This document shows, piece by piece, positions 15,049 through 46,046 of a DNA stretch of 64,000 nucleotides. A program made the translations under genes and the position numbers. The notes below the pieces were generated by a model. The model was not told the origin of the DNA and did not search any database. It was given only the letters and a program-made list of their open reading frames with translations. Source of the DNA: Saprospiraceae bacterium (lineage in GTDB: Bacteria > Bacteroidota > Bacteroidia > Chitinophagales > Saprospiraceae); the NCBI GenBank assembly GCA_965223165.1, contig CBDCVQ010000009.1, forward strand, positions 119,544-183,543. The letters run 5' to 3'. Position 1 is the stretch's first letter; each line of letters opens with the position of its first letter.

Positions 15049-15174
15049 TGTCCTGATCCAGGGAAATGTATTGATCGCTTTGGGAGCCAGACGATTTCGA
15101 GCAAGTTCCGCCGAGTAATCGTGTGGTCTCGAATGATGATCACTAGCGACATAAACTCTAAAGATTCCAGTCTA

Positions 15175-25691: not shown

Positions 25692-28307
25692 CTAGTCTGA
25701 TCGCAAGGTAGTAGCCGGATTTATTGCCGCGGCCCTGGCACTCAAAAGACTAATGACGACGAGGCTCACCAATAAGATCATAAAGCACGCCAGGAGGAAG
25801 GCTCCCCCACCCAAGTGGATTCTATGCGCAAAATCTGCCAACCAGGCGCTAGTGACCGCATAACTTACCGGTATGGCTAAGGCAAAACTCAGCACGATGA
25901 TCAGCACAAAATCCTTACTTATCATACGGATGATAGACTGCGCGCTCGCGCCCAGGACTTTGCGTATACTGATCTCCCTCCTGCGCTGTTGCAGGGTCAA
26001 CGCCGTCAGTCCATATAGTCCTAGGACGCATAGAAGTAGACCGATCAAGGCAAAATATCTGGTGGTCCTGAGGAGCTTCTCTTCATCTTGGTACAGGGAG
26101 GCAAACCACTGGTCCACAAAATAAAATTCAAAAGGAGTTTTGGTGGCACTTTTGTTCCAGGCAGCCTCGATATGACTAAGACTGTTATCCAGGCTTTCGC
26201 CATCCAACTTGATCGAGGCATTCTGTACGTCATTTACACTGAGAAAAATGGCCATCGGTTCTACCGCCTCCGTAGCCAACGAGGCGTAGTGAAAGTCGTC
26301 GACGACACCGATAATCGGGTAGCCGGCATGCGCTCGATCTGGTTTGAGCCTTTTTCCCACCGGGTCCTCCCACTTTACGAAATCAATAAGGGACTGGTTG
26401 ACGATCACATGCATGCTATCGGCGATCGAATGGGTGAGAAAGGACCGGCCCTGATTGACGGTGAGACCGTAGGTCTCAAAAAAATCAGCATCGACCGAAA
26501 AAACTCGTGTGTTCACCTCCTCGTGCTGACCCTCCGGGATGAAGGTCGTCGAATAACTTCCTCCGCCAATCGCCGATCTTCCGATGGACACCGATAGTAC
26601 GCTCGGATGCTGCAACAAATCTGACTCGAAGACCTCTGCCTTAGCTCCAACCTCGTTGTACAGATCTACCACCACCACATTCTCCTTATCAAAACCCAAA
26701 GGCTTCTGCTGGAGATACGTCGTCTGCTTAATAATTACGATGGTGCATATGATGAGAATGGTAGCCATGCCGTACTGCACTCCTAGCAGCACCTTTCGGA
26801 TCAGACCGGCATCCTGCCACCCGCTCATGCTACCCTGGAGGATTCGAGAGGCCCGCGGTCGGGCCAGGATGAAGGCCGGATAGAGCCCCATCAACAGGCA
26901 GAAAACGAGATAGAGACTAAGCAGGGCAACAAAGGTGGAGGGCTGAAGTAGCAATCGGGGTGACAGATCCCTGCCGATCGTCTCGCCGACAGCTAGAAAA
27001 ACCTTGGGCAATATCGCATAGGCAATCATCGATGCCACCGTGAGATTAATGACCGTCTCGATCATGAACCGAACCATCAACTGAAAGCGCCCTGAGCCAA
27101 GGGCTTTACGCACTCCAATTTCCTTACGCTTTTCGAAGGCACGTGACAGGGTAATATTTATGTAGTTGACCACCACAATACACACGATGAGAAGGGTGGA
27201 CAAAATCAGCGAAGTCAGAAACCTCCTGCTGGTCAGATCCATTCCGCGCTGCGCCCTGATCTCGCTACCACGCAGATGAAGGGTTTGGAAGGGTTGCAGT
27301 CTAAGAAAATATTGATCGGCTCGCTCCGGGAAGAATCGCTCCATCATATCAGGCAGCTTGGCTTCCACAGAGGCTGGCACTGCTTGCGGATCCAACTCGA
27401 CGAAGGTGAGTAAGCTCTGTGCCAACCAATTGTTCATCCAGCCAAAGGACAACGGTCCAACGCCAGGCACGGTCGTGGACCAAGAGACCAGTGCTTCAAA
27501 TTGCAGGGTCGATTGTGGACCCGGATCCGCGATGACACCCTCGACCACAAATTCGATGTCATTTATACCGGTGATGGTCTGGCCCATGGGATCCGTGGAG
27601 GGGAAGATGCGCGTCGCCAGTTGCTCCGTAATCACCATCGACCGGGGGCTGCGTAAGACCTTGTCGGCATCGCCATGGAGCAAAGGGTAGTCGAACACAT
27701 CCAAAAATGAGGAGTCCACAAAGCACCAACCCGTCGTTTCGTGCATCTCATCATCCCGATATAGCCGGACCTTGTCCCACCAGGGGCAGATTCTCACCAC
27801 GCCTTTGATCTCAGGATATTCCCTCTTCATCGTCGGCCCCATCATTCCTGATGTTTCTGCCGTTAGGTGATCAATCTGCTCTCTTTCATTGAGATGCCTC
27901 TTGTACAATTGATAAATATGATCGCGCTTTTCATGGATCCGGTCATAATGGAGATCATGCCAGAGCAGGACAAAAGCAAACAGTGAGCAGGCGACGGCAC
28001 AGACCAGTCCCACTAGGTTAATAGCTGAAAATGACTTGCGTCGCAGCATCGATCGCCAGGCACTCACCCAATAGTTCACCAACATCCCAGAGGTCATGCC
28101 GCTGCTTCTATTTTGATTTCGAAAGCTCCAACGGAAAAAGCCCAGCGCCTGCCAAACATAAATCAGTCTTGCCAAGCGCACTCCGCGTCGCTGGACTTGT
28201 TGATGAAAACGCTCTTGCAGATCTCCCAGGATACCCTCTAGCAGATGTGGGTCGCAGAAGCGTTCCAGGAGTCTTACAATGACTTTCGGCGGTGCTGAAT
28301 TCTTCAT
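25692..28307 (-). CDS. Duplicated FtsX/MacB-type ABC permease with an N-terminal cytoplasmic 'prefix' domain (paralog 1 of 10)
   Basis: 871 aa. The prefix is PPKVIVRLLERFCDPHLLEGILGDLQERF. There are two FtsX modules (VNYINITLSRAFEKRKEIGVRKALGS and RRREISIRKVLGAS), each after a large extracytoplasmic domain. The C-terminus is NPATTLRSD. The start overlaps the padR stop by 4 nt. Confidence 0.9.
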   Translation of the reverse strand: MKNSAPPKVIVRLLERFCDPHLLEGILGDLQERFHQQVQRRGVRLARLIYVWQALGFFRWSFRNQNRSSGMTSGMLVNYWVSAWRSMLRRKSFSAINLVGLVCAVACSLFAFVLLWHDLHYDRIHEKRDHIYQLYKRHLNEREQIDHLTAETSGMMGPTMKREYPEIKGVVRICPWWDKVRLYRDDEMHETTGWCFVDSSFLDVFDYPLLHGDADKVLRSPRSMVITEQLATRIFPSTDPMGQTITGINDIEFVVEGVIADPGPQSTLQFEALVSWSTTVPGVGPLSFGWMNNWLAQSLLTFVELDPQAVPASVEAKLPDMMERFFPERADQYFLRLQPFQTLHLRGSEIRAQRGMDLTSRRFLTSLILSTLLIVCIVVVNYINITLSRAFEKRKEIGVRKALGSGRFQLMVRFMIETVINLTVASMIAYAILPKVFLAVGETIGRDLSPRLLLQPSTFVALLSLYLVFCLLMGLYPAFILARPRASRILQGSMSGWQDAGLIRKVLLGVQYGMATILIICTIVIIKQTTYLQQKPLGFDKENVVVVDLYNEVGAKAEVFESDLLQHPSVLSVSIGRSAIGGGSYSTTFIPEGQHEEVNTRVFSVDADFFETYGLTVNQGRSFLTHSIADSMHVIVNQSLIDFVKWEDPVGKRLKPDRAHAGYPIIGVVDDFHYASLATEAVEPMAIFLSVNDVQNASIKLDGESLDNSLSHIEAAWNKSATKTPFEFYFVDQWFASLYQDEEKLLRTTRYFALIGLLLCVLGLYGLTALTLQQRRREISIRKVLGASAQSIIRMISKDFVLIIVLSFALAIPVSYAVTSAWLADFAHRIHLGGGAFLLACFMILLVSLVVISLLSARAAAINPATTLRSD

Positions 28308-28630
28308 TCAAAGGCAATCTTTGGTATGGCATCCCACAGATCATTTCGCATGTTCCTGGCATGTGCCAAGGCCTTTTGCCCCGCCACGGTCACAGTAAAT
28401 AGGTGCTTTCGCCTTCCACCCCGCTCTGCGGTTTGACCCGCATATCGCGACTGGAGGTAGCCCTTTTTCTCGAGTCTAGCCAGGACCGCGTGCACCGTGC
28501 TGATGGCAATCGACCGCCCACAGCGCTCTTTGACAGCGTCTTGTATCGCTAGCCCGTAAGCTTCATCATATAGGAGTGCGGTAATCAGCAGCACTAGCTC
28601 CTCCAATTCTCCCAGATTCGTTCCCTTCAT
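28304..28630 (-). CDS. PadR-family transcriptional regulator (short, about 108 aa)
   Basis: Winged-helix PadR pattern: LGELEELVLLITALLYDEAYGLAIQDAV...STVHAVLARLEKKGYLQSRYAGQTAERGGRRKHLFTVT. Confidence 0.9.
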   Translation of the reverse strand: MKGTNLGELEELVLLITALLYDEAYGLAIQDAVKERCGRSIAISTVHAVLARLEKKGYLQSRYAGQTAERGGRRKHLFTVTVAGQKALAHARNMRNDLWDAIPKIAFE

Positions 28631-28801: not shown

Positions 28802-30136
28802 CTAATGAAGGGTCACGATAAACTCAGTGCCACCTTCTGGTGGAGAATAGGCAGATAGTGTACCGCCGTGCTGATAGATGATTTGGCGGCACAAGCTCAA
28901 CCCGATGCCTGAACCGTCCTTCTTGGTGGTAAAAAATGGAATGAAAATCTGGTCTAGTAATTCAGGAGGAATGCCGGGACCGCTGTCGATGATTCGGAAG
29001 ATGGTGCTTTCATCCCGTTTTTCGATAGAGATAATTATTTGACGCTCCTCGACTTCCTCGACCGCTTCTATCGCGTTTTTTATCAAATTGATGAATGTCT
29101 GCTCGAGCTGATCCGGGTCACCCATGAAAGGATATTCTTTCCCCTCATACTGCTTGATCAGATGGATCTCCCTGTCCTTGATCGCAGATTTCATCAGCAA
29201 CAAGATCCGATCCATGATCTCGGCGCCCTCCAGGGGCTCCTTTTGGGGTGGTGGTACTTTGGTCAGCTTTCGGTAGGTCTCGGTGAAATGCAGCAGCCCT
29301 TCGCTTCTCTTTTGAATCGCTCGGACCGCCGCCCGGATTTCCCCACGCACGTCTGGCGTCACTTCCACTTCCTGCGCCAGCAGGTCGTTGGTACTACCGG
29401 CCAATGACACGACGGGAGACACCGAGTTCATGATCTCATGCGTGAGGATTCTAATCAGTTTCTGCCAGCTGACAATCTCCTGTGCCTGCAATTCGGCATG
29501 AATATTCTGAAAGGAATAAATCAGATAAGTCAGGTCCTTGACACGCAGCTCTGTCTTTTGAATAGCCAGTTGGATGGTTTCTTGGGCCACGACTTTCTTA
29601 AACATCTGCTTATCGCCAGACTTCATTTCAAGCAGCAGGTCATGAAGGTCGTCGTCATACTTTCTAATGGATTCAAATGTCGGGAAAAATGATTTGTGCA
29701 GGGCCATCTGCAGCGCCTTGTTCATAAAGATCGTCTTTCCATTGTCCTCAAATCCGATCAAGCCAGTCTCTACCTTTTCCACCAGGGTCTGGAAATACTG
29801 AAATTGAATTTCCTTTTCCAGGCGAATATTCCGGAATTTCCCATTGATCATATTGAATGCGCCAAATAGGGCTTTCTCTGACTGCTCTTGTCCCGACTCT
29901 CGGTAATTGGTTTCGAAGTCATCGTATTTAATGCTCATCAGAAAATTGGCCAGATGGCGATTGGTCTGATTCACGACCCGAAAAAGACTGAAAATCGTGA
30001 AGACCCCCAGAACGACAAACAGCCCGCCCAGCAAAAAAGACTGCTGCTGAAAAATCAGGAACAACCCCCCCGCCAGCAGCAATACAAGCAGAGCGACGCG
30101 TGTAAAAACCTGCATCTTGAATTTCGTCAGCGTCAT
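28802..30136 (-). CDS. Membrane sensor histidine kinase
   Basis: Two N-terminal TM helices, H-box LTHEIMNSVSP, N-box INLIKNAIEA, and G-boxes IDSGPGIPPE and GSGIGLSLCRQI. It lies downstream of the response regulator on the same strand, after a 78-nt gap. Confidence 0.9.
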   Translation of the reverse strand: MTLTKFKMQVFTRVALLVLLLAGGLFLIFQQQSFLLGGLFVVLGVFTIFSLFRVVNQTNRHLANFLMSIKYDDFETNYRESGQEQSEKALFGAFNMINGKFRNIRLEKEIQFQYFQTLVEKVETGLIGFEDNGKTIFMNKALQMALHKSFFPTFESIRKYDDDLHDLLLEMKSGDKQMFKKVVAQETIQLAIQKTELRVKDLTYLIYSFQNIHAELQAQEIVSWQKLIRILTHEIMNSVSPVVSLAGSTNDLLAQEVEVTPDVRGEIRAAVRAIQKRSEGLLHFTETYRKLTKVPPPQKEPLEGAEIMDRILLLMKSAIKDREIHLIKQYEGKEYPFMGDPDQLEQTFINLIKNAIEAVEEVEERQIIISIEKRDESTIFRIIDSGPGIPPELLDQIFIPFFTTKKDGSGIGLSLCRQIIYQHGGTLSAYSPPEGGTEFIVTLH

Positions 30137-30214: not shown

Positions 30215-31594
30215 TCAAATCCCATATTTTTCCAAACGGCGATAGAGTGAGGTGCGAGTCAGACCCAGTTCAGCCGCAGCCTTAGAGATATTGCCATTGT
30301 GCTTTTTCAGAGCCATGCGAATTAGTTTTTCTTCTGCAGCTTCCAGCGTGGTGGGCTCAGGATCAGAATCCACTAGTGATGCGGAAGATCGGTTGACACC
30401 AAGTGCAATATCATCAGGCAGGATCACCACACCCTCACACATGATAACGGCACGTTCGATGATGTGCCGTAACTCTCGCACGTTGCCCGGCCAGTGGTAC
30501 TGATCCAACTTTTGCAAGCTCTCGTCGCTGAGTTGCAGCTCGGGTTTCTTGTACTTCTTGCGGTACTGCTCAAGGTAAAAGTGGGTTAGCAGCTCCACGT
30601 CACCCTTCCTGTCTCGGAGGGCAGGCAACTGGATTTCGACCGTGTTTATGCGGTATAAGAGGTCCTGTCGAAATGTATTTTCTTTGACCATGTCGTAGAG
30701 CGGCATATTTGTCGCGCAAATGAGGCGAATGTCGACACGAAGCGGCTGATTGCTGCCCACCGGAATAATCTCGTGGCGCTGTAAGGCCTGCAACAACTTG
30801 GCCTGCGAAGACTGCGGCAGATTGCCGATCTCGTCGAGAAACAACGTCCCGCCTGAGGCCGCTTCAAAACGGCCGATACGATCTTGATGTGCGCCGGTAA
30901 ATGACCCTTTTTTATGGCCAAATATCTCGCTTTCAAAGAGGGATTCGGGAATGGCCCCCAGATCGACCGGAATAAAGATCGAAGCGTTGCGTTGCGACTT
31001 GCGGTGAATGGCTCGTGCGATCAGCTCCTTGCCTGTACCATTTTCGCCCAGGATCAATACATGCGCATCCGTATCTGCGACTTTGTCGATGGTGCGAAAG
31101 ACAGCCTTCATTGTAGCGGACTCACCTACGATATCCACAAAGGGCTGATCCACCGCCTCACTGAGCGCACGTTGTGATACCGCCAGCTTTTCCGCCTTCT
31201 TTTCTGCCTGCCTTCGGTCGAAGGCTGCGCGGATTGTTGCGACCATCTTCTCATTGCGCCAAGGTTTTTCCACAAAGTCTGTCGCACCAGCCTTCAGTGC
31301 CTCTACCGCGATCTTGACGTCGCTGTAGGCCGTCATAGTGACCACCGGCACAAATGGCTGAATCTCCTTGGTCTTGCGCAGCCACTCCAGGCCTTCCTCT
31401 CCGGAGTCCCTCCCCTTGCCAAAATTCATGTCGAGTATGACGACATCAGGCTGGTGTAAACGCAATAAGCGAGGCAGGTGATAGGGGTTGTGATCGGTGA
31501 AAACGGCTTTGAAATGTTGCTTGAGCAGGAACTTGAGTGAAAACAGAATGTCCTCCTCATCGTCGATAATCAATATCGTACCTTCCTTGGCCAT
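30215..31594 (-). CDS. Sigma-54-dependent response regulator (NtrC family: REC, AAA+, Fis-type HTH)
   Basis: REC domain (ILIIDDEEDILFSL...VVILDMNF), Walker A GENGTGKE, GAFTGA-type loop (HKKGSFTGA), Walker B LFLDEIG, the PGNVRELRH motif, and C-terminal HTH NISKAAAELGLTRTSLYRRLEKYGI. Confidence 0.95.
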   Translation of the reverse strand: MAKEGTILIIDDEEDILFSLKFLLKQHFKAVFTDHNPYHLPRLLRLHQPDVVILDMNFGKGRDSGEEGLEWLRKTKEIQPFVPVVTMTAYSDVKIAVEALKAGATDFVEKPWRNEKMVATIRAAFDRRQAEKKAEKLAVSQRALSEAVDQPFVDIVGESATMKAVFRTIDKVADTDAHVLILGENGTGKELIARAIHRKSQRNASIFIPVDLGAIPESLFESEIFGHKKGSFTGAHQDRIGRFEAASGGTLFLDEIGNLPQSSQAKLLQALQRHEIIPVGSNQPLRVDIRLICATNMPLYDMVKENTFRQDLLYRINTVEIQLPALRDRKGDVELLTHFYLEQYRKKYKKPELQLSDESLQKLDQYHWPGNVRELRHIIERAVIMCEGVVILPDDIALGVNRSSASLVDSDPEPTTLEAAEEKLIRMALKKHNGNISKAAAELGLTRTSLYRRLEKYGI

Positions 31595-31614
31595 ACCTCA
31601 AAGGTAGCCAATAG

Positions 31615-31630
31615 TGTACGATATCGTACA
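31615..31630. promoter_or_regulatory. Perfect 16-bp palindrome TGTACGATATCGTACA (candidate enhancer site for the adjacent sigma-54 activator)
   Basis: Read directly. It lies in the divergent spacer between the regulator (start 31594) and the adaptor gene (start 31746). Extra ATCGTAC(A) half-sites occur at 31574-31580 and 31656-31663. A 15/16 match is at 51447-51462. Confidence 0.6.
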
Positions 31631-31704
31631 TATAGTGCACGGTTCCGCACAGATTATCGTACACGCATTTGCACCCATACCTCTAATGTCTTGATTTACA
31701 ATAA

Positions 31705-31730
31705 CATATAGTTTTGGCATATATTTCTAT
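31705..31730 (+). promoter_or_regulatory. Conserved promoter box CATATAGTTTTGGCATATATTTCTAT (sigma-54 -24-like TGGCA; alternatively a Bacteroidota -7 box TAGTTTTG)
   Basis: 25 of 26 nt are identical to 51539-51564. TGGCA at 31715-31719 lies about 94 nt from the palindrome centre. The -12 region reads TCTA where canonical TGGCAC-N5-TTGC spacing predicts TTGC, so the sigma-factor assignment is open. Confidence 0.5.
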
Positions 31731-31745
31731 TACAGATACATAGAT

Positions 31746-32996
31746 ATGGATAGAAAAATCGAACGAAAGAAATGGCGATGGCAACGAATCCTACCGATTG
31801 TCATCATCGTAGGGATCTTGGGCTACGTGGGTCAGAGCGTCTATCGCAATAGCGGTAAGAGCAGGCTCAATGTCCAACCGGAGCGCCTACTCTTTGATAC
31901 GGTGCAGGAAGGTACCTTTCAAGAATTTATTCCTGTGACAGGGTCCGTCCTACCGATCAAGACGGTACTGATTGGGGCGGTCGAAGGAGGACGAGTCGAG
32001 AGCAAATTTCTGGAGGATGGCGTGCTGGTGAAGGCCAATCAGAAGATTCTCCAACTAAGCAATCCGGATCTCCAACTCAACTATGTGACGCAGGAGGCCT
32101 CTATCGTGGCTCAAATCAATCAAATCCGGAGCAACAGTCTCCTGATGGAGCAGCAGAGCCTACGACTCAAGGAAACTGCGCTGGACATCGACTATCAGAT
32201 TGATTTGTTGAGTAAGCGCGTGTCGAGAAATAAGAGCCTCTATGGCGATGGTGTCATTGCCGAAGTAGAATTTCAAGAGACGGAGGACGAATTTGAACAC
32301 CTCGAACGTCGAAAGCTACTACTGCAGGAGACCATTAAAAAAGATAGCGCCTCCGCCGAGCTGCAGCGACAACAGATGCAGAACACCCTGGACCTGATGC
32401 AACGCAACCTATCGATCGCCCGCAAGAGTCTTGAAAATCTCACCGTACGGGCACCGATAGATGGTCAACTTTCAGGCTTGGATTCAGAGCTGGGTGAACT
32501 GATCATCGAGAGCAGCCAAATTGCGCAGATTGACGACCTCTCCGATTTCAAAATACGCGTCCAGATCGATGAATTCTATATCTCTCGAGTTTTCGCAGGT
32601 CAATCCGGCTCATTTCAATTTGCGGGGGACACGTATTACCTAACCATTCAGAAAATATTTCCCCAGGTGATCAATGGGGCCTTCGCTGCTGACATGCTGT
32701 TTGAGGGCGAGACGCCCGATGGCATCAAGCGAGGCCAGACCGTCTCCGTCAAACTTGAGCTGAGTGCGCAGGAACGTGCACTGCTTGTCGCCAAAGGCGG
32801 ATTCTATCAGACGACCGGTGGCAACTGGGTCTATGTGCTTACGGCAGACGGAGCCGTTGCCACCAAGCGAGACATACGAGTGGGCAGGCAAAATCCCAAT
32901 TTTTACGAGGTGCTCAGCGGGCTCCAGAGTGGAGAGGTCGTAATCACCTCCAGCTATGAAAACTTTGGTGACAAGGATGAGCTTGTCATGAGATAA
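31746..32996 (+). CDS. HlyD/MacA-type periplasmic adaptor (membrane fusion protein)
   Basis: 416 aa with an N-terminal anchor helix (ILPIVIIVGILGYVG), a long coiled-coil middle, LTVRAPIDGQLSG (lipoyl/beta-barrel motif), and a C-terminal beta domain. It is the first gene of the ABC operon. Confidence 0.85.
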   Translation: MDRKIERKKWRWQRILPIVIIVGILGYVGQSVYRNSGKSRLNVQPERLLFDTVQEGTFQEFIPVTGSVLPIKTVLIGAVEGGRVESKFLEDGVLVKANQKILQLSNPDLQLNYVTQEASIVAQINQIRSNSLLMEQQSLRLKETALDIDYQIDLLSKRVSRNKSLYGDGVIAEVEFQETEDEFEHLERRKLLLQETIKKDSASAELQRQQMQNTLDLMQRNLSIARKSLENLTVRAPIDGQLSGLDSELGELIIESSQIAQIDDLSDFKIRVQIDEFYISRVFAGQSGSFQFAGDTYYLTIQKIFPQVINGAFAADMLFEGETPDGIKRGQTVSVKLELSAQERALLVAKGGFYQTTGGNWVYVLTADGAVATKRDIRVGRQNPNFYEVLSGLQSGEVVITSSYENFGDKDELVMR

Positions 32997-33091
32997 AAAG
33001 TAATTAGAAATGTAACTATATCGCTCGTCGTGCGTCCGTTTTTTGTGCGACCCGATTGAAAAATCAATTTAATCAACTTAACTAACCATTG

Positions 33092-33778
33092 ATGATAAAA
33101 ACTGACAAGCTCGTCAAGGTCTACACAACCGAAGACGTAGAGACCACAGCCCTTAACGAGGTCAATCTCGAAATCCAGGAGGGCGAATTTGTGGCCATAA
33201 TGGGGCCCTCAGGCTGTGGCAAATCGACCTTACTTAATGTATTGGGCATGATCGATAGCCCCACGGCAGGAGATTACTTCTTTCTCGAGCAAGAAGTAGG
33301 ACAACTGCCTGAACGCAAGCGGTCCAACGTACGCAAGCACAATCTTGGGTTCGTATTTCAGAGCTTTAATCTCATCGACGAACTGACAGTGTTTGAGAAT
33401 GTGGAACTGCCCATGTTATACACCAACACACCTAGTGCTGAGCGTAAGAAGAGAGTGGAAGAGCTGTTGGAAAACATGAAGATGATGCATCGGCGCAATC
33501 ACTTTCCCCAGCAATTATCGGGAGGACAGCAGCAGCGAGTCGCCGTGGCGCGAGCTATTGTCAATCATCCCAAATTAATTCTTGCGGATGAACCCACCGG
33601 TAACCTGGACAGTTCGAACGGCGATGATGTCATGAGGCTAATGGCCGATCTGAATGCTGCTGGCACCACCATCGTGATGGTGACACACTCGCAGTATTGC
33701 GCAGAGTTTGCCAACCGGATTGTGCGAATGCTTGACGGCCAGGTCGTTACGGAGAATGTGGTAAGACAATTCCTTTGA
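33092..33778 (+). CDS. ABC transporter ATP-binding protein (MacB/LolD-type NBD), copy A
   Basis: Walker A GPSGCGKST, Q-loop FVFQSFNL, signature LSGGQQQRVAVARA, Walker B LILADEPTGNLD, and H-loop MVTHS. Confidence 0.95.
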   Translation: MIKTDKLVKVYTTEDVETTALNEVNLEIQEGEFVAIMGPSGCGKSTLLNVLGMIDSPTAGDYFFLEQEVGQLPERKRSNVRKHNLGFVFQSFNLIDELTVFENVELPMLYTNTPSAERKKRVEELLENMKMMHRRNHFPQQLSGGQQQRVAVARAIVNHPKLILADEPTGNLDSSNGDDVMRLMADLNAAGTTIVMVTHSQYCAEFANRIVRMLDGQVVTENVVRQFL

Positions 33779-33852
33779 TTTAAAAAAAACAATATTGAGT
33801 ACTCGATGACCGGAGCGGATCAATTAAAACGCTCGGTACACCATTTATAACT

Positions 33853-34557
33853 ATGATCAAATTAATAAACATCGAACGCTATTATAAGAGCGGTCTTCAA
33901 AAGTCATGGGTACTCAGGGATATCTCTTTAGATATTGAGGAAGGTGAATTTGTCACGATTATGGGCCCTAGCGGCTCAGGCAAAACTACCCTCCTTAATA
34001 TCATTGGGATGTTGGATCAACCCAATGGGGGAGAATATTATTTCATAGATGAACCCGTACATCGCTTCAACGAGCGACGCAGAACAGATCTCCACAAGCA
34101 TTACATCGGATTCATATTTCAGGCCTATCACCTGATCGACGACCTCACCGTGTACGAGAATATCGAAACGCCATTGCTGTACAAGAAGGTAAAGCGCAGC
34201 CAACGGAAGGCTGTGGTCGCTGACATTCTCGATCGATTTAACATTGTGGCAAAGAAAGATTTGTTTCCCCATCAACTGTCTGGTGGGCAGCAGCAGCTTG
34301 TCGGGGTAGCACGTGCCGTGGTTGGCAAACCCAAACTGCTGCTTGCAGACGAGCCGACGGGAAATCTGCACTCCTCCCAGGGCAAAATTATAATGGACAC
34401 CCTCGCTCAATTGCACAAGGAAGGAATGACCATCGTACAAGTCACTCATGACGAAAAGAATGCGCTCTACGGGGACCGCATCATTCAACTTTGGGATGGC
34501 TTTATCAAGGACGACAAGATCGTCAGAGAGCGACAACAGGTGGAAAGTCCAGAATGA
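33853..34557 (+). CDS. ABC transporter ATP-binding protein (MacB/LolD-type NBD), copy B, divergent from copy A
   Basis: Walker A GPSGSGKTT, signature LSGGQQQLVGVARA, Walker B LLLADEPTGNLH, and H-loop QVTHD. Confidence 0.95.
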   Translation: MIKLINIERYYKSGLQKSWVLRDISLDIEEGEFVTIMGPSGSGKTTLLNIIGMLDQPNGGEYYFIDEPVHRFNERRRTDLHKHYIGFIFQAYHLIDDLTVYENIETPLLYKKVKRSQRKAVVADILDRFNIVAKKDLFPHQLSGGQQQLVGVARAVVGKPKLLLADEPTGNLHSSQGKIIMDTLAQLHKEGMTIVQVTHDEKNALYGDRIIQLWDGFIKDDKIVRERQQVESPE

Positions 34558-34716
34558 CCTGATCGCTGACGGCGGTATAGCGCAGACCGTCCCTACAGCC
34601 CCTGCACTGCGGAAGAGCATCCGGTTGGGCACGCTGAAGCATACTTACTCGACGGTCTCAAAGAGACATGTTGCATTTTATTGGGCTCGTAGCCAAAATA
34701 AATCTCATTTGACCCA

Positions 34717-37167
34717 ATGCTAAAAAATTACATTAAGATTGCTTGGCGCAACCTGGTGCGCAATAGAAATTATGCCGTCATTAATATTCTAGGGCTGGCC
34801 ATTGGCTTGGCTTGTTTCATGTTGATCATGAGCTATGTCCAAGATGAACTTAGCTACGACAAATTTCATGAAGATGGCGATCAGATCTACCGGATGGCAT
34901 TAGAACGCATCTATCCGGGGCGTTCTCGCCATTACGCCATCATTCCTCAATCCTACGCTGCAGCCGTAAAAAACGATTATTCGGAGGTAGAAGAATCCTG
35001 CCGTATCTTCTATTTTCAGGGAAACAATCTCGTATTTAAGGTCAACGACGAACCCTTTGAAGAGGAGTACTACCTATGGGCAGATACGACATTCTTCGAT
35101 CTATTCAAGATCCCGCTCATCGACGGCGATATCACTAATGCGTTGTCCAAGCCCAATTCGGTGGTCCTGACCCGCACTCAGGCAGAAAAATACTTTGGAT
35201 CTGAGGTAGCGGTCGGTAAAATGCTGGATTTTCCCCAAGCCCAGAATTCACTTACAGTGACCGGCGTCTGCGAAGACCTACCTGAGAATTCACACTTGCG
35301 TTTCAACATGCTGATCTCCTCCTCTTCACTGGGACAATTTCTCAGCACCCCAAATTATATCAACTTTAGTGCCTATACATACCTGAAGTTGCATCCCGAA
35401 GCTGATCCGCAGCAGCTGGAGGCAAAATTTCCAGAAATGGTCGTCAAATATGCCTCCGGCCCGGTACTCACACAATTTGGCGTCGACTACGCCGAGTACC
35501 AGCGACAGGGCAATGGCTATCGGTATTTTCTACAGCCGCTGCCCGACATCTATCTGGAGTCCAATCTCGAATCCGAGATAAAGCCCCCTGGCTCTAAGCA
35601 GCGAGTTTATTTCTTTCTCGCCATTGCCGTACTGATCCTTGCCATTGCCTGCATTAATTTCATGAATCTAGCTACGGCTCGCTCCACTGGCCGGGCACGT
35701 GAGGTGGGCATTCGAAAAACGTTGGGATCGGAGCGGCGACAAATCGCGCTACAGTTTCTACTGGAGGCCGTGATCATCAGCTTGGTCGCGGCCGGCATCG
35801 CACTGGTTATCAATTTTCTTGTGATCAACGGCTTTAATTCCCTCACGGGCAAAAACTTCTCGCCGAGCCACTTTGGAAGCATTAGTTATTTGGCCATACT
35901 GATTGGGATCGCCGGCCTAGCGGGTCTGTTGGCAGGTGCGTATCCGGCCTTTGCCCTGTCTTCATTCAAGCCCGTCGAAGTATTGAGCGGAAACCTCATG
36001 CAGAAAACAAAGGGTGCAGGACTAAGGAATGTGCTGGTCGTATTTCAGTTTGGTATTTCCGTATTTCTCATCATCTCAAGCCTCATTGTCTACCGGCAGT
36101 GGATGTATACCCAGGGCAAGGAACTTGGATTTGACAAAGACAGCGTCATCACGATCCAAGGCGCCGGCGGCATGGATATCCAACAGGGTGAAACCTTCAA
36201 GAAGGAGCTCGCTCTCATCCCTGGTGTTGAAGCGGTAAGTGGTTGCAACACGCAGCCCGGGCAGCAATATTTTGGTATGTCCTTCCAACCCCAGGGAGCA
36301 TTGGAAATGACCACGGGCAGTGGTCTTATCGTCGATGAAGGATACATCGAATGCATGAAGATGGATGTGGTGGCCGGACGGAGCTTCTCGAAGCAGTTTA
36401 TGGACACACTGTCGATCGTCATCAATGAAGCCGCAGCTCGGGAGATGGAGTTAACCGATCCGGTGGGCAAGACCATCACCAGCAACGATGGCTTTCTCAA
36501 TCCAGTGGAAGATCAGCAGTCGGTGTATACGGTGATCGGAGTCGTCAAAGATTTTCATTTTCAATCGCTGCACCACCCCATATCTCCCCTATTTCTCGTG
36601 CATAACCAGAGAAGCTTCAACCCTGGGGTGGACCAACAGGTGACCATTCGGGTGCAGGGCCAGGCTCTGCAGGGTGCACTAGCACGCATGGGCAACCTCT
36701 GGGCCGAGTTTCAACCAGATCTGCCCTTCCGCTACGCCTTTCTCGATCGAGAATGGGCGGCACTCTATGAAAAGGAGGTGACGACGAGGAAAGTATCGGG
36801 CCTGTTTACGCTCATCGCCATATTTATCGCCTGCCTAGGACTTTTGGCTCTGGCAGCCTATACGGCAGAAAGAAGGACCAAAGAGATCGGCATCCGCAAG
36901 GTCTTGGGGGCGTCTGTTGGCAATCTGGTCACTCTGCTGTCCAAGGACTTCCTAAAATTGGTCGTCATCTCGATACTTATTGCCTCACCCGTAGCATGGT
37001 ATGCTATGAACAAGTGGTTGGAAAATTTTGCATACCGAATTGAGATTGGGCCGGGCGTATTTGTGCTGGCTGCCGTCTTGGCCATCGTGATCGCCTTTCT
37101 GACCGTCAGTTTTCAAAGTGTCAAGGCCGCACTACTCAATCCCATGCATTCCCTACGAGATGAATAA
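34717..37167 (+). CDS. Duplicated FtsX/MacB-type ABC permease (paralog 2)
   Basis: 816 aa with N-terminus MLKNYIKIAWRNL. FtsX motifs are INFMNLATARSTGRAREVGIRKTLGS and RRTKEIGIRKVLGAS. There are two large extracytoplasmic domains and the C-terminus NPMHSLRDE. Confidence 0.9.
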   Translation: MLKNYIKIAWRNLVRNRNYAVINILGLAIGLACFMLIMSYVQDELSYDKFHEDGDQIYRMALERIYPGRSRHYAIIPQSYAAAVKNDYSEVEESCRIFYFQGNNLVFKVNDEPFEEEYYLWADTTFFDLFKIPLIDGDITNALSKPNSVVLTRTQAEKYFGSEVAVGKMLDFPQAQNSLTVTGVCEDLPENSHLRFNMLISSSSLGQFLSTPNYINFSAYTYLKLHPEADPQQLEAKFPEMVVKYASGPVLTQFGVDYAEYQRQGNGYRYFLQPLPDIYLESNLESEIKPPGSKQRVYFFLAIAVLILAIACINFMNLATARSTGRAREVGIRKTLGSERRQIALQFLLEAVIISLVAAGIALVINFLVINGFNSLTGKNFSPSHFGSISYLAILIGIAGLAGLLAGAYPAFALSSFKPVEVLSGNLMQKTKGAGLRNVLVVFQFGISVFLIISSLIVYRQWMYTQGKELGFDKDSVITIQGAGGMDIQQGETFKKELALIPGVEAVSGCNTQPGQQYFGMSFQPQGALEMTTGSGLIVDEGYIECMKMDVVAGRSFSKQFMDTLSIVINEAAAREMELTDPVGKTITSNDGFLNPVEDQQSVYTVIGVVKDFHFQSLHHPISPLFLVHNQRSFNPGVDQQVTIRVQGQALQGALARMGNLWAEFQPDLPFRYAFLDREWAALYEKEVTTRKVSGLFTLIAIFIACLGLLALAAYTAERRTKEIGIRKVLGASVGNLVTLLSKDFLKLVVISILIASPVAWYAMNKWLENFAYRIEIGPGVFVLAAVLAIVIAFLTVSFQSVKAALLNPMHSLRDE

Positions 37168-37230
37168 CCCCGGTGCAGAGATGGCGGGCTGACGCCGCCC
37201 AAGATCACTTAAAAGAAAAAGCATACAGTC

Positions 37231-39663
37231 GTGCTATTCAACTACTTAAAGATCATCAGCCGTACATTGATGAAGTATCGGTACTTCACTGCCATCCATG
37301 TGGCGGGGTTGTCCTTGGGTCTTACCTGCTGCCTGCTTATCAGCTTCTTCATCCGTCATGAGTTCAGCTTTGACCGTCATCACCTAAAAGGTGACCGAAT
37401 CTATCGCATCGGCGTCGTGGAGACGAGTCCTCACGGGATACGGCATTCGGGTGGCACACCATATCCATGTGGTGAGGCAATGCGCCTTGATTTTGAAGAC
37501 CTGGAGCAAGTGGTGCAGATCTACCAGGCAGGCGAAGTGGGGCTGAAATTACCAGGTGGTACACGTTATCCGGTCGAAAACATCGTGTTTGCGGAGCCGT
37601 CGTTTGTGGATGTCTTTGACATCAAGACCAGCCGTGGAGATATCTCACACTCTTTGAGCACGCCCAACCGCGCCGTCATTGATGAGACGACCGCTCGACT
37701 CCTATTTGGCGATGATGACCCCCTGGGTCAGGTGCTGAGCGTCAATAATGTCATCACTGTCGAAGTGGGTGCCGTCATGCAAGATTTGCCCACAAATACG
37801 CACTTGCCGGCATCCATCATGCTGTCACATGAATCACTCAGTGCCGAATTTGTGGGTATAGAAATAAAAAACTGGGGAGTGACTGTGGGCGGCGCCACCT
37901 ACGTCTTACTTCCTCCCGGCATCCCACCCTCCACCTATGAGGGACGACTCCAGGCATTTGCTGACAAATACATGAACAGTGAGGAAGACAGTGGCTTCTC
38001 GCATGCATTGACGCTTCAAGCTCTGGCCGACATTCACTTTCAACCCCACTACTCAAGTAATTCGCCCGTTACTCCGATCCGGCCCATCTACCTTTGGATC
38101 TTCGCTTGTATCGGCCTGCTGGTGCTGGCCATCGCATCATTCAATTTTATAAATCTTTCCACGGTCCAGGCCCTGAAGCGACATAAGGAGGTAGGCGTAC
38201 GTAAGGTGCTCGGAGCCAATCGCCGTCAATTGATGCAGCAATTTCTAGGAGAGGCACTGATCATAAGTTTTGTTGCGGGCGTCCTAGCCTGCGCCTTCGC
38301 CATGTTTAGCCTGCCCTATGTCAATGACTTACTTAACAAGCAGATCGACACGGCGATCTTTTCGTACCTACCTAATGGCCTGATCATCGTGGGACTACCG
38401 CTGCTGATCGGAATCCTGTCTGGCATCTATCCCGCGCTGGTACTTTCTCGTTACGAGCCAGCCAGCGCCCTGGTACCTTCCCACCGAAGGGGTCGCAGTG
38501 GAAGCCAGTGGTTGCGGAGATCGCTGGTCGTTGCCCAATACACCATCACGATCGGCTTAATTATAGGGACCATTGTCGTGTCGCGACAGGTCAGATACAT
38601 GGAAGGCAAAGACCTTGGATTTCAAAAGCAAGGCATTGTGATGCTGGACATCCCTCAGCAGGATCAACTGGAGCCGTTGCGCAGTGAATGGCTCAGAGAT
38701 CCTTCGATCCATCAGGTTACGTTCACGCTCGGCGCCCCCACCTCCGTCAACAACATAGGCACATCCTTCCATCCCAAAGGCATGGACCCAAGCGTACATA
38801 CCTACCGCATGGACCTAAAAACGGTGGACTATGCCTATGCGGACACCTACGACCTTGAATTAGTTGCAGGGCGGTGGATGACCAAAGAGGAGGATCGACG
38901 TGCGGCATTGGAGGTACCAAGCGAAGATAGATCATACGTCTTTGTCGTTAATGAAGCCCTTGCCAAGCAAGTGGGGCATGCAGACCCTGCAGCCATGGTG
39001 GGTCAACGCCTGATTACTGGCATCAACGACATAGAGGCTGAGGTCATCGGTGTGGTTAAGGACTTTCACTCCACATCACTGCACAATGAAATTGAACCCA
39101 CGCTGTTCATCCATTTCCCCCGGTTGGATTATCGAGCGGGACTGAAAATTGATCTCGCGGATACTAAGGCCACGTTGGCACATATTGAAGATGTTTGGAC
39201 ACGTCAGTTTCCGGATGATTATTTCAACGCCACCTTTTTGGACGAGACGATTGCACTGCTGTACGACAATGAGCAACGACTTTTTCAGCTCTTCCGGATA
39301 TTCACAACCCTGGCCATTGTCATAGGAGCACTTGGCCTGTTTGGCCTAGTCAGCTACATCGTGGAGCTGCGGACCAAGGAGATCGGCATCCGGAAGGTGT
39401 TGGGCGCCACCGTAGGAAGTATATTACTGCTGGTGTCCAAGGAATTTATCATGATTGTCGGCAGTGCCATCCTGCTCGCGATTCCGATGGCCTGGTATTG
39501 CATGGAACGCTGGCTGCAGAACTTTGCATTCCACATTAATTTGGGGCTAGGAATATTTGTGTTGGCCATATTGATCACTTTTTCGATCACAATTGGCGCT
39601 GTGGGATTTCAGAGCGCAAGGGCCGCATTGATGAATCCGGTGGATTCGCTGAGAAACGAATAA
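37231..39663 (+). CDS. Duplicated FtsX/MacB-type ABC permease (paralog 3), GTG start
   Basis: 810 aa. The N-terminus MLFNYLKIISRTL aligns with the other paralogs only if GTG 37231 is the start. Motifs are FNFINLSTVQALKRHKEVGVRKVLGA and LRTKEIGIRKVLGAT; the C-terminus is NPVDSLRNE. Confidence 0.9.
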   Translation: MLFNYLKIISRTLMKYRYFTAIHVAGLSLGLTCCLLISFFIRHEFSFDRHHLKGDRIYRIGVVETSPHGIRHSGGTPYPCGEAMRLDFEDLEQVVQIYQAGEVGLKLPGGTRYPVENIVFAEPSFVDVFDIKTSRGDISHSLSTPNRAVIDETTARLLFGDDDPLGQVLSVNNVITVEVGAVMQDLPTNTHLPASIMLSHESLSAEFVGIEIKNWGVTVGGATYVLLPPGIPPSTYEGRLQAFADKYMNSEEDSGFSHALTLQALADIHFQPHYSSNSPVTPIRPIYLWIFACIGLLVLAIASFNFINLSTVQALKRHKEVGVRKVLGANRRQLMQQFLGEALIISFVAGVLACAFAMFSLPYVNDLLNKQIDTAIFSYLPNGLIIVGLPLLIGILSGIYPALVLSRYEPASALVPSHRRGRSGSQWLRRSLVVAQYTITIGLIIGTIVVSRQVRYMEGKDLGFQKQGIVMLDIPQQDQLEPLRSEWLRDPSIHQVTFTLGAPTSVNNIGTSFHPKGMDPSVHTYRMDLKTVDYAYADTYDLELVAGRWMTKEEDRRAALEVPSEDRSYVFVVNEALAKQVGHADPAAMVGQRLITGINDIEAEVIGVVKDFHSTSLHNEIEPTLFIHFPRLDYRAGLKIDLADTKATLAHIEDVWTRQFPDDYFNATFLDETIALLYDNEQRLFQLFRIFTTLAIVIGALGLFGLVSYIVELRTKEIGIRKVLGATVGSILLLVSKEFIMIVGSAILLAIPMAWYCMERWLQNFAFHINLGLGIFVLAILITFSITIGAVGFQSARAALMNPVDSLRNE

Positions 39664-39799
39664 ACGTGGGTGCGACCCAAGGGCTGGCGCAGCACCATCC
39701 TGCATTGGGAGGGTAATCCCGAACGATTTTTTTAAGAAAAGTAGGTCGCCTAAACCAATCATTGGACTCATGGCTGCCACAACCGAAAGTACGATTACT

Positions 39800-42259: not shown

Positions 42260-42397
42260 CAATTTCAATGGCAATTTCAATTTCAATGGCAATGGCAATT
42301 TCGATGGCAATGGCAATTTCAATGGCAATGGCAATGACAATTTCGATGGCAATGGCAATTTCAATGGCAATGGCAATTTCAATGGCAATGACAGTGG
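42260..42397 (+). repeat. Hexanucleotide tandem array (CAATKK), 23 units, with an 18-bp higher-order unit CAATTT-CAATGG-CAATGG
   Basis: Parsed unit by unit from the sequence. Variants are CAATTT, CAATGG, CGATGG, CAATGA and CAGTGG. It starts 18 nt after the paralog-4 stop codon. Confidence 0.95.
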
Positions 42398-45484: not shown

Positions 45485-45669
45485 GGTATTGATGCAAATC
45501 AAGAAATGCGAGAAATGAGATGCCCTTACCAAATATATCAATTCCAACCTCAGGTAGAGGCCAGCCTTGGCTCCTGCTCGTACGCTAATTTGCTGGCTTA
45601 GACCACAACGAATCTTCCCCTTCCTGCAACCTTGACTCAGTTTTGTCCGTCCTTGATATATACCTGATT

Positions 45670-45713: not shown

Positions 45714-46046
45714 ATGAGTAGACATCACCTGGGAGAATTTGAAGAGATCGTCATGCTGACTGTAGCCATCCTGCACGGGGAGGCATATGGTATTGCCATC
45801 TTAAATGAAATCGAGGACCGTCTCCATCGCAAGGTGAGTATCGGCTCGCTTCAGACCGTGTTGCGGCGGCTCGAAGACAAGGGCTATCTCAGTTCTGAGC
45901 TTGGTGAGGCCACAGCGGTACGGGGAGGAAAACGAAAGCGATTCTTTCAGGTGACAAATTACGGAAAGAAAGTGCTGACACAGACGAAGGAGCAACGAAT
46001 GTCTCTTTGGAAAGCTATTCCTAAAATCGCCTGGGATCGCTCATGA
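45714..46046 (+). CDS. PadR-family transcriptional regulator (short, 110 aa)
   Basis: LGEFEEIVMLTVAILHGEAYGIAILNEI...GSLQTVLRRLEDKGYLSSELGEATAVRGGKRKRFFQVT. Its stop overlaps the next start (ATGA). Confidence 0.9.
   Translation: MSRHHLGEFEEIVMLTVAILHGEAYGIAILNEIEDRLHRKVSIGSLQTVLRRLEDKGYLSSELGEATAVRGGKRKRFFQVTNYGKKVLTQTKEQRMSLWKAIPKIAWDRS

Follow-up and report, generated by a model that had tools for sequence, protein, structure and literature searches.

The 151-bp intergenic region between a two-component regulator gene and a divergent ABC efflux operon is, in our reading of its sequence, probably a complete enhancer-dependent control region. As such it would be of an ordinary type, although its −12 element is degenerate in an unusual way and the predicted mRNA leader is minimal. 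An NtrC-type regulator is likely to bind tandem sites within this region and to activate the sigma-54 promoters of two operons, one adjoining it and one about 20 kb downstream. This reading is built on observed sequence elements, their duplication, conservation and phasing, and the domain content of the regulator, within a 64-kb window (the whole stretch of DNA analysed; Table 1) and in related loci.

Results

The regulator carries the Pfam domains Response_reg, Sigma54_activat (1.8e-67), AAA_lid_14 and HTH_8, an architecture of REC domain, AAA+ sigma-54 interaction domain and C-terminal Fis-type HTH, with the Walker A motif GENGTGKE and, at residue 230, the L1 loop GSFTGA, for which a preliminary description of this DNA had rightly called it a sigma-54 activator; across the regulator family the loop variants are limited to GAFTGA, GSFTGA, GAFTDA and GSFTDA. 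REC, AAA+ with Walker A and GAFTGA-type loop, HTH and an adjoining kinase gene together place it in the NtrC family of two-component regulators. Its nearest NCBIfam families are PrsR, AtoC and NtrC, with every score under the cut-off, so that it is not AtoC, NtrC, PrsR or ZraR itself. The kinase gene lies 78 nt downstream of the regulator gene, an order kept in all orthologous loci. By hydropathy and translation, the kinase N-terminus is a hairpin of two transmembrane helices (about residues 8–55) without a periplasmic domain, and about 170 cytoplasmic residues precede the H-box and could themselves act as the sensor.

Table 1 Features of the control region, its duplicate and the flanking genes.
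Feature	Position	Strand	Basis
Sensor histidine kinase, 444 aa	28802–30136	−	Pfam HATPase_c; hydropathy and translation
NtrC-family response regulator (bacterial enhancer-binding protein), 459 aa	30215–31594	−	Pfam
TACCTTTG, TAnnTTTG match 4 nt upstream of regulator ATG	31599–31606	−	Candidate −7 box
Candidate enhancer (UAS) site 1, TGTACGATATCGTACA, perfect palindrome of the form TGTnCG-N4-CGnACA	31615–31630		Sequence
Candidate enhancer (UAS) site 2, TGCACGGTTCCGCACA, imperfect 16-bp copy	31636–31651		Sequence
Lone half-site ATCGTACA	31656–31663	+	Sequence; not conserved in copy B or orthologues
IHF-consensus site, AATCAAGACATTA = WATCAANNNNTTR	31684–31696	−	Between candidate enhancer and promoter
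Promoter box A, AGTTTTGGCATATATTTCTAT	31710–31730	+	Sequence; conserved; PWM
Predicted sigma-54 start and adaptor ATG	31741–31748	+	Geometry: G at −24 = 31717, +1 about 31741, ATG 31746
Operon A: adaptor, two ATPases, three permeases	31746–42241	+	Pfam; synteny conserved
HlyD-type adaptor (operon A)	31746–32996	+	Pfam HlyD_3
Two ABC ATPases (operon A)	33089–33778, 33853–34557	+	Pfam ABC_tran
Three duplicated FtsX/MacB_PCD permeases, about 810–823 aa (operon A)	34717–37167, 37231–39663, 39770–42241	+	Pfam
Enhancer copy B: TGTCCGATATCGTACA (51447–51462), 5 bp, TGACCGCTGGCGTACA (51468–51483)	51447–51483		Sequence
Promoter box B, 21/21 identical to box A	51544–51564	+	Sequence
Gene array B, without its own ATPase or adaptor	51668–63735	+	Pfam; NCBIfam; ORF list
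FtsX/ADOP-type permeases (array B)	51668–54115, 54731–57103, 57232–59610	+	Pfam-confirmed
S41-like/TPR protein	59619–61286	+	Array B
811-aa ORF matching the permeases in size	61300–63735	+	ORF list

On the other side of the intergenic region, Pfam finds in operon A an adaptor, a MacB-type ATPase and MacB_PCD/FtsX permeases, the components of a MacB-type tripartite exporter, and the best NCBIfam matches are DarC, DarD, DarB and ADOP, all under the curated cut-offs; judged from these matches, operon A is of MacAB/DarBCD-like architecture and no equivalog. No outer-membrane factor gene was seen, and neither rpoN nor an IHF gene was found among the ORFs of the window scanned with Pfam.

The perfect 16-bp palindrome reported earlier upstream of TGGCA is read directly from the sequence as site 1, and site 2 starts exactly 21 bp, or two helical turns, from its start. 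Allowing at most three mismatches, this palindrome has two occurrences in the window against 0.12 expected, the generic site TGTNCGNNNNCGNACA (at most one mismatch) occurs only four times in the 64 kb, as two pairs that are each 21-bp phased, and none of 300 Markov simulations produced even one pair so phased. The count of the generic site comes from a mismatch-tolerant search; a strict GT.C/G.AC regular expression misses site 2. Of two additional half-sites described earlier, ATCGTACA lies where it had been placed, and the other, ATCGTAC, falls at 31575–31581 instead of 31574–31580, within the regulator coding sequence. In alignments neither is conserved in copy B or the orthologues; ATCGTACA is probably incidental, and the scattered half-sites appear to be better read as the second, imperfect 16-bp site.

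The regulator start codon (CAT on the + strand, 31592–31594) stands 20 nt before the palindrome. The TAnnTTTG match upstream of it abuts site 1 and is tentatively taken as the housekeeping −7 box of the regulator–kinase operon; boxes resembling it were read by eye in the orthologous loci L001 (TACATTTG), L083 (TATTTTTG) and L087 (TATCTTTG). No TGGCA faces the regulator gene, which is without a TGGCA promoter. With the sites this close to the regulator ATG and no TGGCA pointing toward it, autoregulation, if any, would most plausibly be repression by occlusion, the bound regulator probably repressing its own gene.

Facing operon A, the TTTTGGCATATATTTCTAT box does begin at 31712 and the adaptor ATG at 31746, as first described. 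Within promoter box A, the −24 element TGGCAT (31715–31720; TGGCA at 31715–31719), with its GG in the TGGCAC/T context, is followed by a T-tract; scored with a PWM derived from the wider family, box A reaches 12.3 bits in the −24 half (family mean 13.1) and −1.5 bits in the −12 half (family mean 6.1, family minimum 0.06), and as a whole site it ranks only 43rd in the window. Instead of TTGC(W) with its GC exactly 10 nt after the GG, positions −15 to −12 read TCTA (31726–31729), so that the caveat raised at the outset about this element stands, and the missing −12 GC proves to be clade-wide. Box A, copy B and L001 read TGGCAT-ATATT-TCTA, without GC at −13/−12, and the −12 of the orthologues reads TTCT in most cases, else TTCA, TGTA, TTAA or TACT. 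The T-run ahead of the C differs by one base among the orthologues, and hence the sole recurrent base of the −12 region stands at no fixed distance from the GG. The exact canonical TGGCA-N6-TTGC has a single match in the whole window (17911), within a coding ORF, and the excess of one-mismatch matches to it in the window stems from hexamer tandem repeats.

By geometry, the predicted leader of promoter A is about 5 nt. This, too, had been stated as a caveat and holds throughout the clade: the T of TGGCA is 27–31 nt from the ATG in all 11 promoters that have a start close by, corresponding to a predicted leader of 1–5 nt at the adaptor gene, a conserved feature like the missing −12 GC. Leaderless mRNAs make up 5.5% of the mRNAs of F. 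psychrophilum (PMC9723704), and about 3.7% of the 5′ UTRs of B. thetaiotaomicron are shorter than 10 nt (PMC7366714); since short leaders are uncommon in Bacteroidota, the predicted leader counts against a sigma-54 start.

The IHF-consensus site is centred at −51 relative to the predicted start. The consensus is exact at this position in the window, L002, L081 and L011 and has one mismatch at the same position in L086, L087, L089 and L038, with the alignment columns TA-N6-TGA conserved; exact matches number only three in the whole 64-kb window. Copy B has no IHF-consensus site at −51. The literature, searched for IHF in Bacteroidota and for a −12 logo specific to this phylum, yielded nothing usable.

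The candidate enhancer and promoter recur as a module (51447–51564) about 20 kb downstream, ahead of a second FtsX/ADOP permease array. The 21-nt promoter box has two exact copies in the window against 0.00 expected, and the TGGCAT of copy B (51549–51554) lies 102 bp from the start of its site 1, closely matching the 100 bp of promoter A; a regulator with Sigma54_activat domain and GSFTGA loop is accompanied by tandem sites that lie, at both promoters, within the roughly 80–150 bp usual for the upstream activating sequences of sigma-54 promoters. The DNA between and around the two modules is unrelated: blastn of A against B gives only two short blocks (32 nt at 94% and 18 nt at 94%). A segmental duplication with a decayed regulator was rejected on blastn and tblastn, the latter finding no regulator relic at copy B. 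For copy B the start is predicted near 51575, which would put about 93 nt of leader ahead of the array. An Rfam scan of the whole window had no matches, so that neither the promoter box nor this leader is a known RNA element, and E. coli-type sigma-70 promoter scans and intrinsic-terminator scans of both promoters and both operons gave counts not above those of shuffles and are uninformative on operon ends. The regulon would include at least one further promoter, at 51549.

Comparison was extended to 10 distinct orthologous loci (L001, L002 and eight of L081–L089, L088 being nearly identical to L002), in which the regulator is 64–77% identical. In all 10 the gene order RR-HK / HlyD-ABC-ABC-FtsX is maintained, both sites are there in tandem and TGGCAY does not vary; site 1 is thus present in every one of them as well as in the paralogous copy B. 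Sites and box are conserved across the 10 loci and the intervening sequence is not, and all 12 close promoters have TGGCAY. Site 1 is either 90–91 or 100–102 bp from TGGCA and at no other distance, two classes that differ by one turn of the helix, as would be expected if looping depends on helix face; in L081 the distance is 90 bp at both promoters of one genome. A metagenome scan on DNA alone, with the enhancer skeleton plus TTGGCAT as pattern, matched 41 loci, of which about 25 were discarded as one recurrent chance match in human-gut coding sequence and 15 are genuine tandem-site loci. By tblastn, nine of the 15 lie between an RR-HK pair and an HlyD gene, behind which ABC and FtsX genes follow on contigs that extend far enough, four lie directly ahead of a further FtsX gene, and two are without a match. 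Seven of the 15 carry the canonical TGGCAT-N5-TTGC, not required by the search pattern; in more distant relatives, then, the same enhancer type stands upstream of canonical promoters. The module being duplicated, conserved in 10 loci, quantised in distance and paired with canonical promoters in distant relatives, comparative evidence supports the core of the preliminary description, namely that the regulator pair drives the adaptor-NBD-NBD-permease operon through a palindromic enhancer.

Discussion

Enhancers about 100–150 bp away, IHF-assisted looping and contact through GAFTGA constitute a textbook mechanism (PMC7057263), by analogy to which the elements described above can be arranged in a predicted sequence of events. 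The membrane kinase would phosphorylate the regulator, dimers of which would bind the two 16-bp sites of consensus TGTnCG-N4-CGnACA; these, being 21 bp apart, would lie on the same helix face, and the dimers bound in tandem would build the active AAA+ ring. A bend at the IHF-consensus site would loop the ring onto the sigma-54 RNA polymerase held at TGGCAT, and ATP hydrolysis would open the AT-rich DNA downstream, with transcription beginning about 5 nt ahead of the adaptor ATG. The product of operon A would be a MacB/DarBCD-like tripartite ABC exporter made of the adaptor, two ATPases and three duplicated FtsX permeases. Copy B would place the ATPase-less permease array under the same regulator, so that these permeases would be expressed jointly with the ATPases and adaptor on which they would depend. 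In Flavobacterium, also of the Bacteroidota, mapped sigma-54 promoters have typical −24/−12 elements (PMC9723704), and FtsX permeases (COG0577) are computationally enriched for sigma-54 promoters in Bacteroidia (PMC12316311).

A wider reading, which we regard as possible yet somewhat doubtful, is that these promoters form a distinct sigma-54 class of this Saprospiraceae-related clade, with a perfect −24, a T-tract and no −12 GC, giving an effectively leaderless induced adaptor mRNA, and that one enhancer type co-ordinates ADOP permeases with borrowed ATPases and adaptor. We know of no description of a sigma-54 promoter without −12 GC combined with an effectively leaderless induced mRNA.

The same bases that hold TGGCA in promoter A also hold a perfect TAnnTTTG, TAGTTTTG (31709–31716), as had been pointed out with concern. 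It is unlikely, in our estimation, that in some lineages, including that of promoter A, two promoters overlap here, sigma-A giving basal transcription from TAGTTTTG with a leader of about 23 nt and sigma-54 giving induced transcription from shared bases. A start about 7 nt after TAGTTTTG would yield this leader, matching the modal 23–24 nt of Bacteroidota mRNAs (PMC7366714, PMC9723704), the degenerate −12 element might weaken the sigma-54 site, and a perfect TAnnTTTG overlaps TGGCA in L082, L083, L085 and L087 as well. However, read by eye, the motif is absent or has at least two mismatches in L001, L081, L084, L086 and L089 and has one mismatch in copy B (GAGTTTTG) and L002; it is thus perfect in five of 12 promoters, against 12 of 12 for TGGCAY, which weakens the −7 box as a rival of the sigma-54 element. 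TAnnTTTG, if this lineage uses it at all, stands upstream of only two of 34 genes in the window, against about 1.2 expected by an estimate from its density there; it is thus not enriched, and the figure neither supports nor excludes the sigma-A reading.

More improbable still is transcription by the housekeeping sigma alone from TAGTTTTG, with TGGCAT as an ancestral sigma-54 relic and the tandem sites serving only the promoter of the regulator. The clade-wide loss of the −12 GC and the same leader-length argument would fit, but a relic would not remain invariant in 12 of 12 promoters, including a copy 20 kb away, amid diverging flanks, and the quantised distance and the fixed IHF-like site would be left purposeless. 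Moreover, copy B is without a perfect TAnnTTTG, and sigma-A polymerase is not open to activation by an AAA+ protein whose sigma-54 contact loop is intact (PMC7057263). That the palindromes, the box or both are operators of another regulator, such as a nearby PadR, with coincidental linkage to the sigma-54 activator, is very improbable: two PadR genes in the window do adjoin related permeases, but the PadR-linked permease genes (28630–25692, 45714–51279) have no such sites upstream, and the sites accompany the regulator gene in 10 protein-selected and nine DNA-selected loci, most showing no PadR.

The arrangement favoured here, activation of sigma-54 promoters from tandem sites, is worth comparing with that of the NtrC–glnAp2 class (NtrC, NifA, XylR-Pu, ZraR/AtoC). 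Common to both are a REC–AAA+–Fis HTH regulator encoded beside its kinase, a pair of neighbouring dyad sites some 100 bp upstream that share one face of the helix, a bend site of IHF consensus lying between them and the promoter, a TGGCAY −24 and sites that overlap the upstream region of the regulator itself, as NtrC sites do at glnAp1/glnLp. In contrast to that class, the −13/−12 GC is replaced here by a T-tract and then CT or TA, the start codon lies 1–5 nt past the predicted start, and the target is an efflux pump and not nitrogen metabolism. The half-site also differs, TGTnCG with a 4-bp spacer standing against the TGCACC-N5-GGTGCA of NtrC.

Sigma-54 control of COG0577 has been predicted computationally in Bacteroidia, Opitutia and Gammaproteobacteria (PMC12316311, 2025), for the same gene family and phylum as here. 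That survey used PWM hits only, with activator, enhancer sites and phasing undefined, and by its own account misses promoters deviating from TGGCAC-N5-7-TTGCT, as the present promoter does. If the latter is sigma-54 dependent, surveys of regulons by PWM overlook an entire class of sites in this lineage. The conserved loss of the −12 GC and the predicted near-leaderless geometry amount to a natural experiment on the −12 requirement of sigma-54 polymerase, the geometry also bearing on whether enhancer-dependent promoters can feed leaderless translation.

The exporter itself resembles MacAB/DarBCD and the ADOP permeases (TIGR03434) in its HlyD-type adaptor, its MacB-type ATPases and its permeases with two MacB_PCD and two FtsX domains, and differs from them in that six or seven paralogous permeases would stand under one regulator with two ATPase genes. 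In Bacteroidota and Acidobacteriota few transporter families are as expanded and as poorly understood as the duplicated FtsX/ADOP permeases, many of which are 'orphans' without an ATPase. For these the locus yields a testable regulon, with a defined activator, a 16-bp site in two copies 21 bp apart, a promoter box and two target operons, one without ATPases; the site as defined here (TGTNCGNNNNCGNACA in pairs spaced by 21 bp, together with the box pattern TTGGCATATATTT) lets the regulon be enumerated in any related genome.

Finally, the two-helix-hairpin kinase, lacking an extracellular domain and encoded beside an FtsX-family transporter, recalls BceRS–BceAB of Firmicutes, in which an intramembrane-sensing kinase senses through an FtsX-type ABC transporter. 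The likeness may serve as a lead only; the regulator here is a sigma-54 activator and not of the OmpR type.

Architecture of the divergent control region

The elements named in the preliminary description of this region were all found when the sequence was read directly: the perfect 16-bp palindrome TGTACGATATCGTACA, TTTTGGCATATATTTCTAT beginning at 31712, the adaptor ATG at 31746, TCTA at the -12 position with TGGCAY-N5 spacing, and TAGTTTTG as a perfect TAnnTTTG match. The 21 nt separating palindrome and regulator gene hold when counted from the first palindrome base to the last base of the start codon (CAT, 31592-31594). One coordinate slipped: the extra half-site ATCGTACA lies at 31656-31663 as described, and that within the regulator gene at 31575-31581, not 31574-31580. 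Neither half-site has a counterpart in alignments with copy B, a second module in the window, or with the orthologues, and the enhancer is better read as two tandem sites. The generic site TGTNCGNNNNCGNACA, with at most one mismatch, matches exactly four times in the 64-kb window (31615, 31636, 51447, and 51468), forming two pairs with starts exactly 21 bp apart in each (a 16-bp site plus 5 bp); in 300 dinucleotide-Markov simulations of the window, not even one pair so phased arose. These tandem sites very probably constitute the enhancer at which the regulator acts.

Features of the window
Feature	Positions	Strand	Remark
Histidine kinase gene	28802-30136	-	
NtrC-family regulator gene	30215-31594	-	
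TAnnTTTG match TACCTTTG	31606-31599	-	4 nt before regulator ATG, 8 nt from site 1
Site 1, TGTACGATATCGTACA	31615-31630		
Site 2	31636-31651		
IHF consensus WATCAANNNNTTR	31684-31696	-	centred at -51 from predicted start
TAnnTTTG match TAGTTTTG	31709-31716		
Promoter A box AGTTTTGGCATATATTTCTAT	31710-31730		TGGCAT at 31715-31720
Operon A	31746-42241	+	
Copy B palindrome TGTCCGATATCGTACA	51447-51462		
Copy B box	51544-51564		21/21 identical to promoter A box
Array B	51668-63735		FtsX-type permeases, S41-like/TPR protein
Hexamer arrays	42260-42390, 54111-54359, 57099-57156, 63731-63888		genes ending 42241, 54115, 57103, 63735
ACCATAAA x25	54529-54729		ends 2 nt before permease ATG at 54731
TTCAACAA x7	57168-57222		before permease ATG at 57232
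CAATGAA x32	63779-63997		short tandem repeat
PadR-permease regions	25692-28630, 45714-51279	-, +	
Alanine racemase, two overlapping ORFs	44262-45547	-	44795-45547 N-terminal domain, 44262-44843 rest
32-nt tandem repeat, 2.9 copies	15158-15251		85% matches; intergenic gap, unrelated to control region

The gene assignments made earlier agree with the domain searches. The sigma-54 activator is a 459-aa protein (Sigma54_activat, E = 1.8e-67) that also has receiver, AAA-lid, and Fis-type HTH domains, with the GSFTGA loop at residue 230, and the neighboring gene encodes a histidine kinase. Operon A has the order described: the HlyD-type adaptor comes first, then two ABC ATPases, and finally three permeases of ~810-823 aa, all of which contain two MacB_PCD and two FtsX domains apiece. 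These are the parts of a MacB/DarBCD-type tripartite exporter, although all NCBIfam matches, including that of the permeases to the ADOP 'duplicated orphan permease' family, fall below curated cut-offs. The kinase has two adjacent transmembrane helices (~residues 8-55) forming a hairpin without a periplasmic domain, followed by ~170 cytoplasmic residues before the H-box; a HisKA domain was not detected by Pfam at a threshold of 0.001. The hairpin resembles that of transporter-coupled Bce-type kinases, a likeness to be taken as a lead and no more.

No TGGCA points toward the regulator gene. If TACCTTTG, which has similar TAnnTTTG-like boxes by eye in the orthologue regions L001, L083, and L087, serves as its promoter, polymerase would compete with the bound regulator, and negative autoregulation might result.

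Duplication of the module and conservation in related loci

In a mismatch-tolerant search of the window, both the palindrome (0.12 matches expected) and the box (0.00 expected) recur in copy B. Loci A and B are alignable in these blocks only, the DNA between and around them being unrelated, and comparison with the regulator revealed no relic of its gene at copy B. The array following copy B contains no ATPase or adaptor gene; placing it under operon A's type of enhancer would be a sensible way to co-produce partners. In L081, a related locus, a copy-B-type module (at about 2586, minus orientation) immediately precedes the first permease gene, in the same phasing class as the first module of that genome. 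Secondary enhancer and promoter modules lie directly ahead of extra FtsX permease genes in L081, L094, L120, L126, and L127; with such modules found again in other genomes, the window's two-promoter layout is a family trait.

Scanning genomes with the regulator protein and inspecting the context of homologues at 64-77% identity yielded 11 closely related loci from Saprospiraceae-like Bacteroidota; L088 being nearly identical to L002, 10 are distinct. HlyD-ABC-ABC-FtsX genes diverge from the regulator-kinase pair wherever the contig is long enough, that of L090 being too short for the full synteny, and the enhancer-promoter architecture is shared by all 10 distinct loci. Site 1 reads TGT[A/T]CG-N4-CG[T/A/G]AC[A/G] and site 2, 5 bp after it, TG[C/A/T]nCG-N4-CGnAC[A/G]; a poorly conserved spacer, a conserved TA-N6-TGA...ACATA block, and an invariant TGGCAY follow. 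Measured from the first base of site 1, the T of TGGCA is only ever 90, 91, 100, 101, or 102 bp away. These values fall into two classes one helical turn apart, the pattern to be expected if DNA looping has to bring the bound protein face to face with the promoter. In L090, a run of AGCGAC(C/A)A(C/A)-type tandem repeats (GCGACCACAGCGACAAAAGCGACC...), at about 130-250 of the region upstream of the regulator gene, separates that gene from the enhancer sites.

The IHF consensus matches exactly at the same position in L002, in L081, and in L011, a more distant locus, and with one mismatch in L086, L087, L089, and L038. Exact matches number only three in the entire window, both strands counted; the site is absent at -51 of copy B. 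Enhancer, bend site, and -24 element, in this order, make up the textbook sigma-54 promoter layout (PMC7057263).

TGGCAT as a probable -24 element

Public metagenome contigs were scanned at the DNA level only, for the right half of site 1 followed by the site 2 skeleton, a 56-70 nt gap, and TTGGCAT. About 25 matches, all repeats of a single chance match within gut-bacterial coding sequence, were discarded, and 15 loci have genuine tandem palindromes. Matches to the window proteins were found by tblastn in 13 of the 15; nine are flanked by a regulator-kinase pair (45-53% identity) on one side and a HlyD gene on the other, with ABC and FtsX genes next wherever the contig extends far enough, and four directly precede an additional FtsX permease gene. 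TTGC stands exactly five bases after TGGCAT in 7/15, a feature not demanded by the pattern, and the remaining loci have TTGA, TTGG, ATGC, and similar. More distant Saprospiraceae paralogues, selected by protein, likewise carry tandem sites at 99-103 bp and TGGCAY-N5-TTGC, TTGG, or TGGG. Across the family, then, this type of enhancer goes together with bona fide sigma-54 promoters, and the window's TGGCAT occupies the place homologous to their -24 element.

The GC of the -12 element is gone in the window's own clade: TGGCAT-ATATT-TCTA is found in both copies of the window and L001, and the -12 position reads TTCT in 6 of the 11 related loci and TTCA, TGTA, TTAA, or TACT in the rest. Scored by a PWM from 22 family promoters outside this clade, the -24 half reaches 12.3 bits (family mean 13.1) and the -12 half -1.5 bits (family mean 6.1, minimum 0.06), the box ranking only 43rd within the window by whole-site score. 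Positions of about -18 to -14 hold a conserved T-tract; T-tracts of this kind make sigma-54 bind more strongly at nifH promoters, and activated transcription is still possible from non-consensus -12 regions, with silencing loosened. Since mapped Bacteroidota sigma-54 promoters look canonical (PMC9723704), the clade is a deviation, not the phylum norm.

An alternative that stays alive is a housekeeping (sigma-A) promoter driving the adaptor gene from TAGTTTTG, because initiation ~7 nt after this box would leave a ~23-nt leader, which is the modal length among Bacteroidota (PMC7366714). Against it, just 5 of the 12 close promoters, copy B not being one of them, have a perfect TAnnTTTG overlying TGGCA, whereas TGGCAY is present in 12/12; L084 keeps TGGCAC with TTTG wholly missing, and an AAA+ activator is unable to act on sigma-A polymerase. 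Moreover, of 34 window genes just two, both at this intergenic region, have TAnnTTTG in the 150 nt upstream, so that the motif is not demonstrably a promoter signal used generally by the lineage. With low probability, a weak sigma-A promoter may overlap the box in some lineages. We consider it probable that the full sigma-54 mechanism applies; the regulator-enhancer-sigma-54 promoter model proposed earlier is supported and extended by the duplication, the orthologues, and the metagenome loci, and the locus is a well-preserved example of a known mechanism. A sigma-54/FtsX link in Bacteroidota has been noted computationally (PMC12316311).

Placing G(-24) at 31717 puts the predicted sigma-54 start near 31741, so that 5 nt remain ahead of the ATG. 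Promoter A and 10 related loci have a start codon close by; in these 11 promoters the T of TGGCA lies 27-31 nt from the adaptor ATG, corresponding to predicted leaders of 1-5 nt; the adaptor N-terminus (MDRKIE...) is conserved and the ORF has no earlier start codon. Short leaders are uncommon in Bacteroidota, with 5.5% of mRNAs leaderless in F. psychrophilum (PMC9723704) and ~3.7% of 5' UTRs below 10 nt in B. thetaiotaomicron (PMC7366714). Leaders are long for copy B (~93 nt predicted) and the canonical relatives, so the working of the box does not depend on how far away a start codon lies. The missing -12 GC and the near-leaderless geometry, two conserved peculiarities, deserve experiment.

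Other features of the window

Hexamer repeat arrays, (CAATGG/CAATTT)n, begin within ~20 nt of the stop codons of four permease-size genes, with TGGCAA every 6, 12, or 18 nt on the plus strand; on the minus strand, TTGCCAT-N5-TTGC receives a high score from the family sigma-54 PWM, yet it carries GC in place of the required GG. A similar array is present in just one of 131 loci retrieved, L053 (5388-5423). The short tandem repeats ACCATAAA, TTCAACAA, and CAATGAA, A-rich and situated in gaps before permease start codons, are presumably unstructured spacers.

Genes for PadR-family regulators (108 and 110 aa) have a 4-nt overlap with the starts of ADOP-type permeases of 870-875 aa, of which the one scanned against NCBIfam (46043-48655) has an N-terminal 'permease prefix' domain. 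No tandem enhancer sites lie upstream of the PadR-linked genes in the window, and this arrangement is a second, sigma-54-independent regulation of the same permease family. Finally, the split alanine racemase gene indicates a frameshift, a pseudogene, or a sequencing error.
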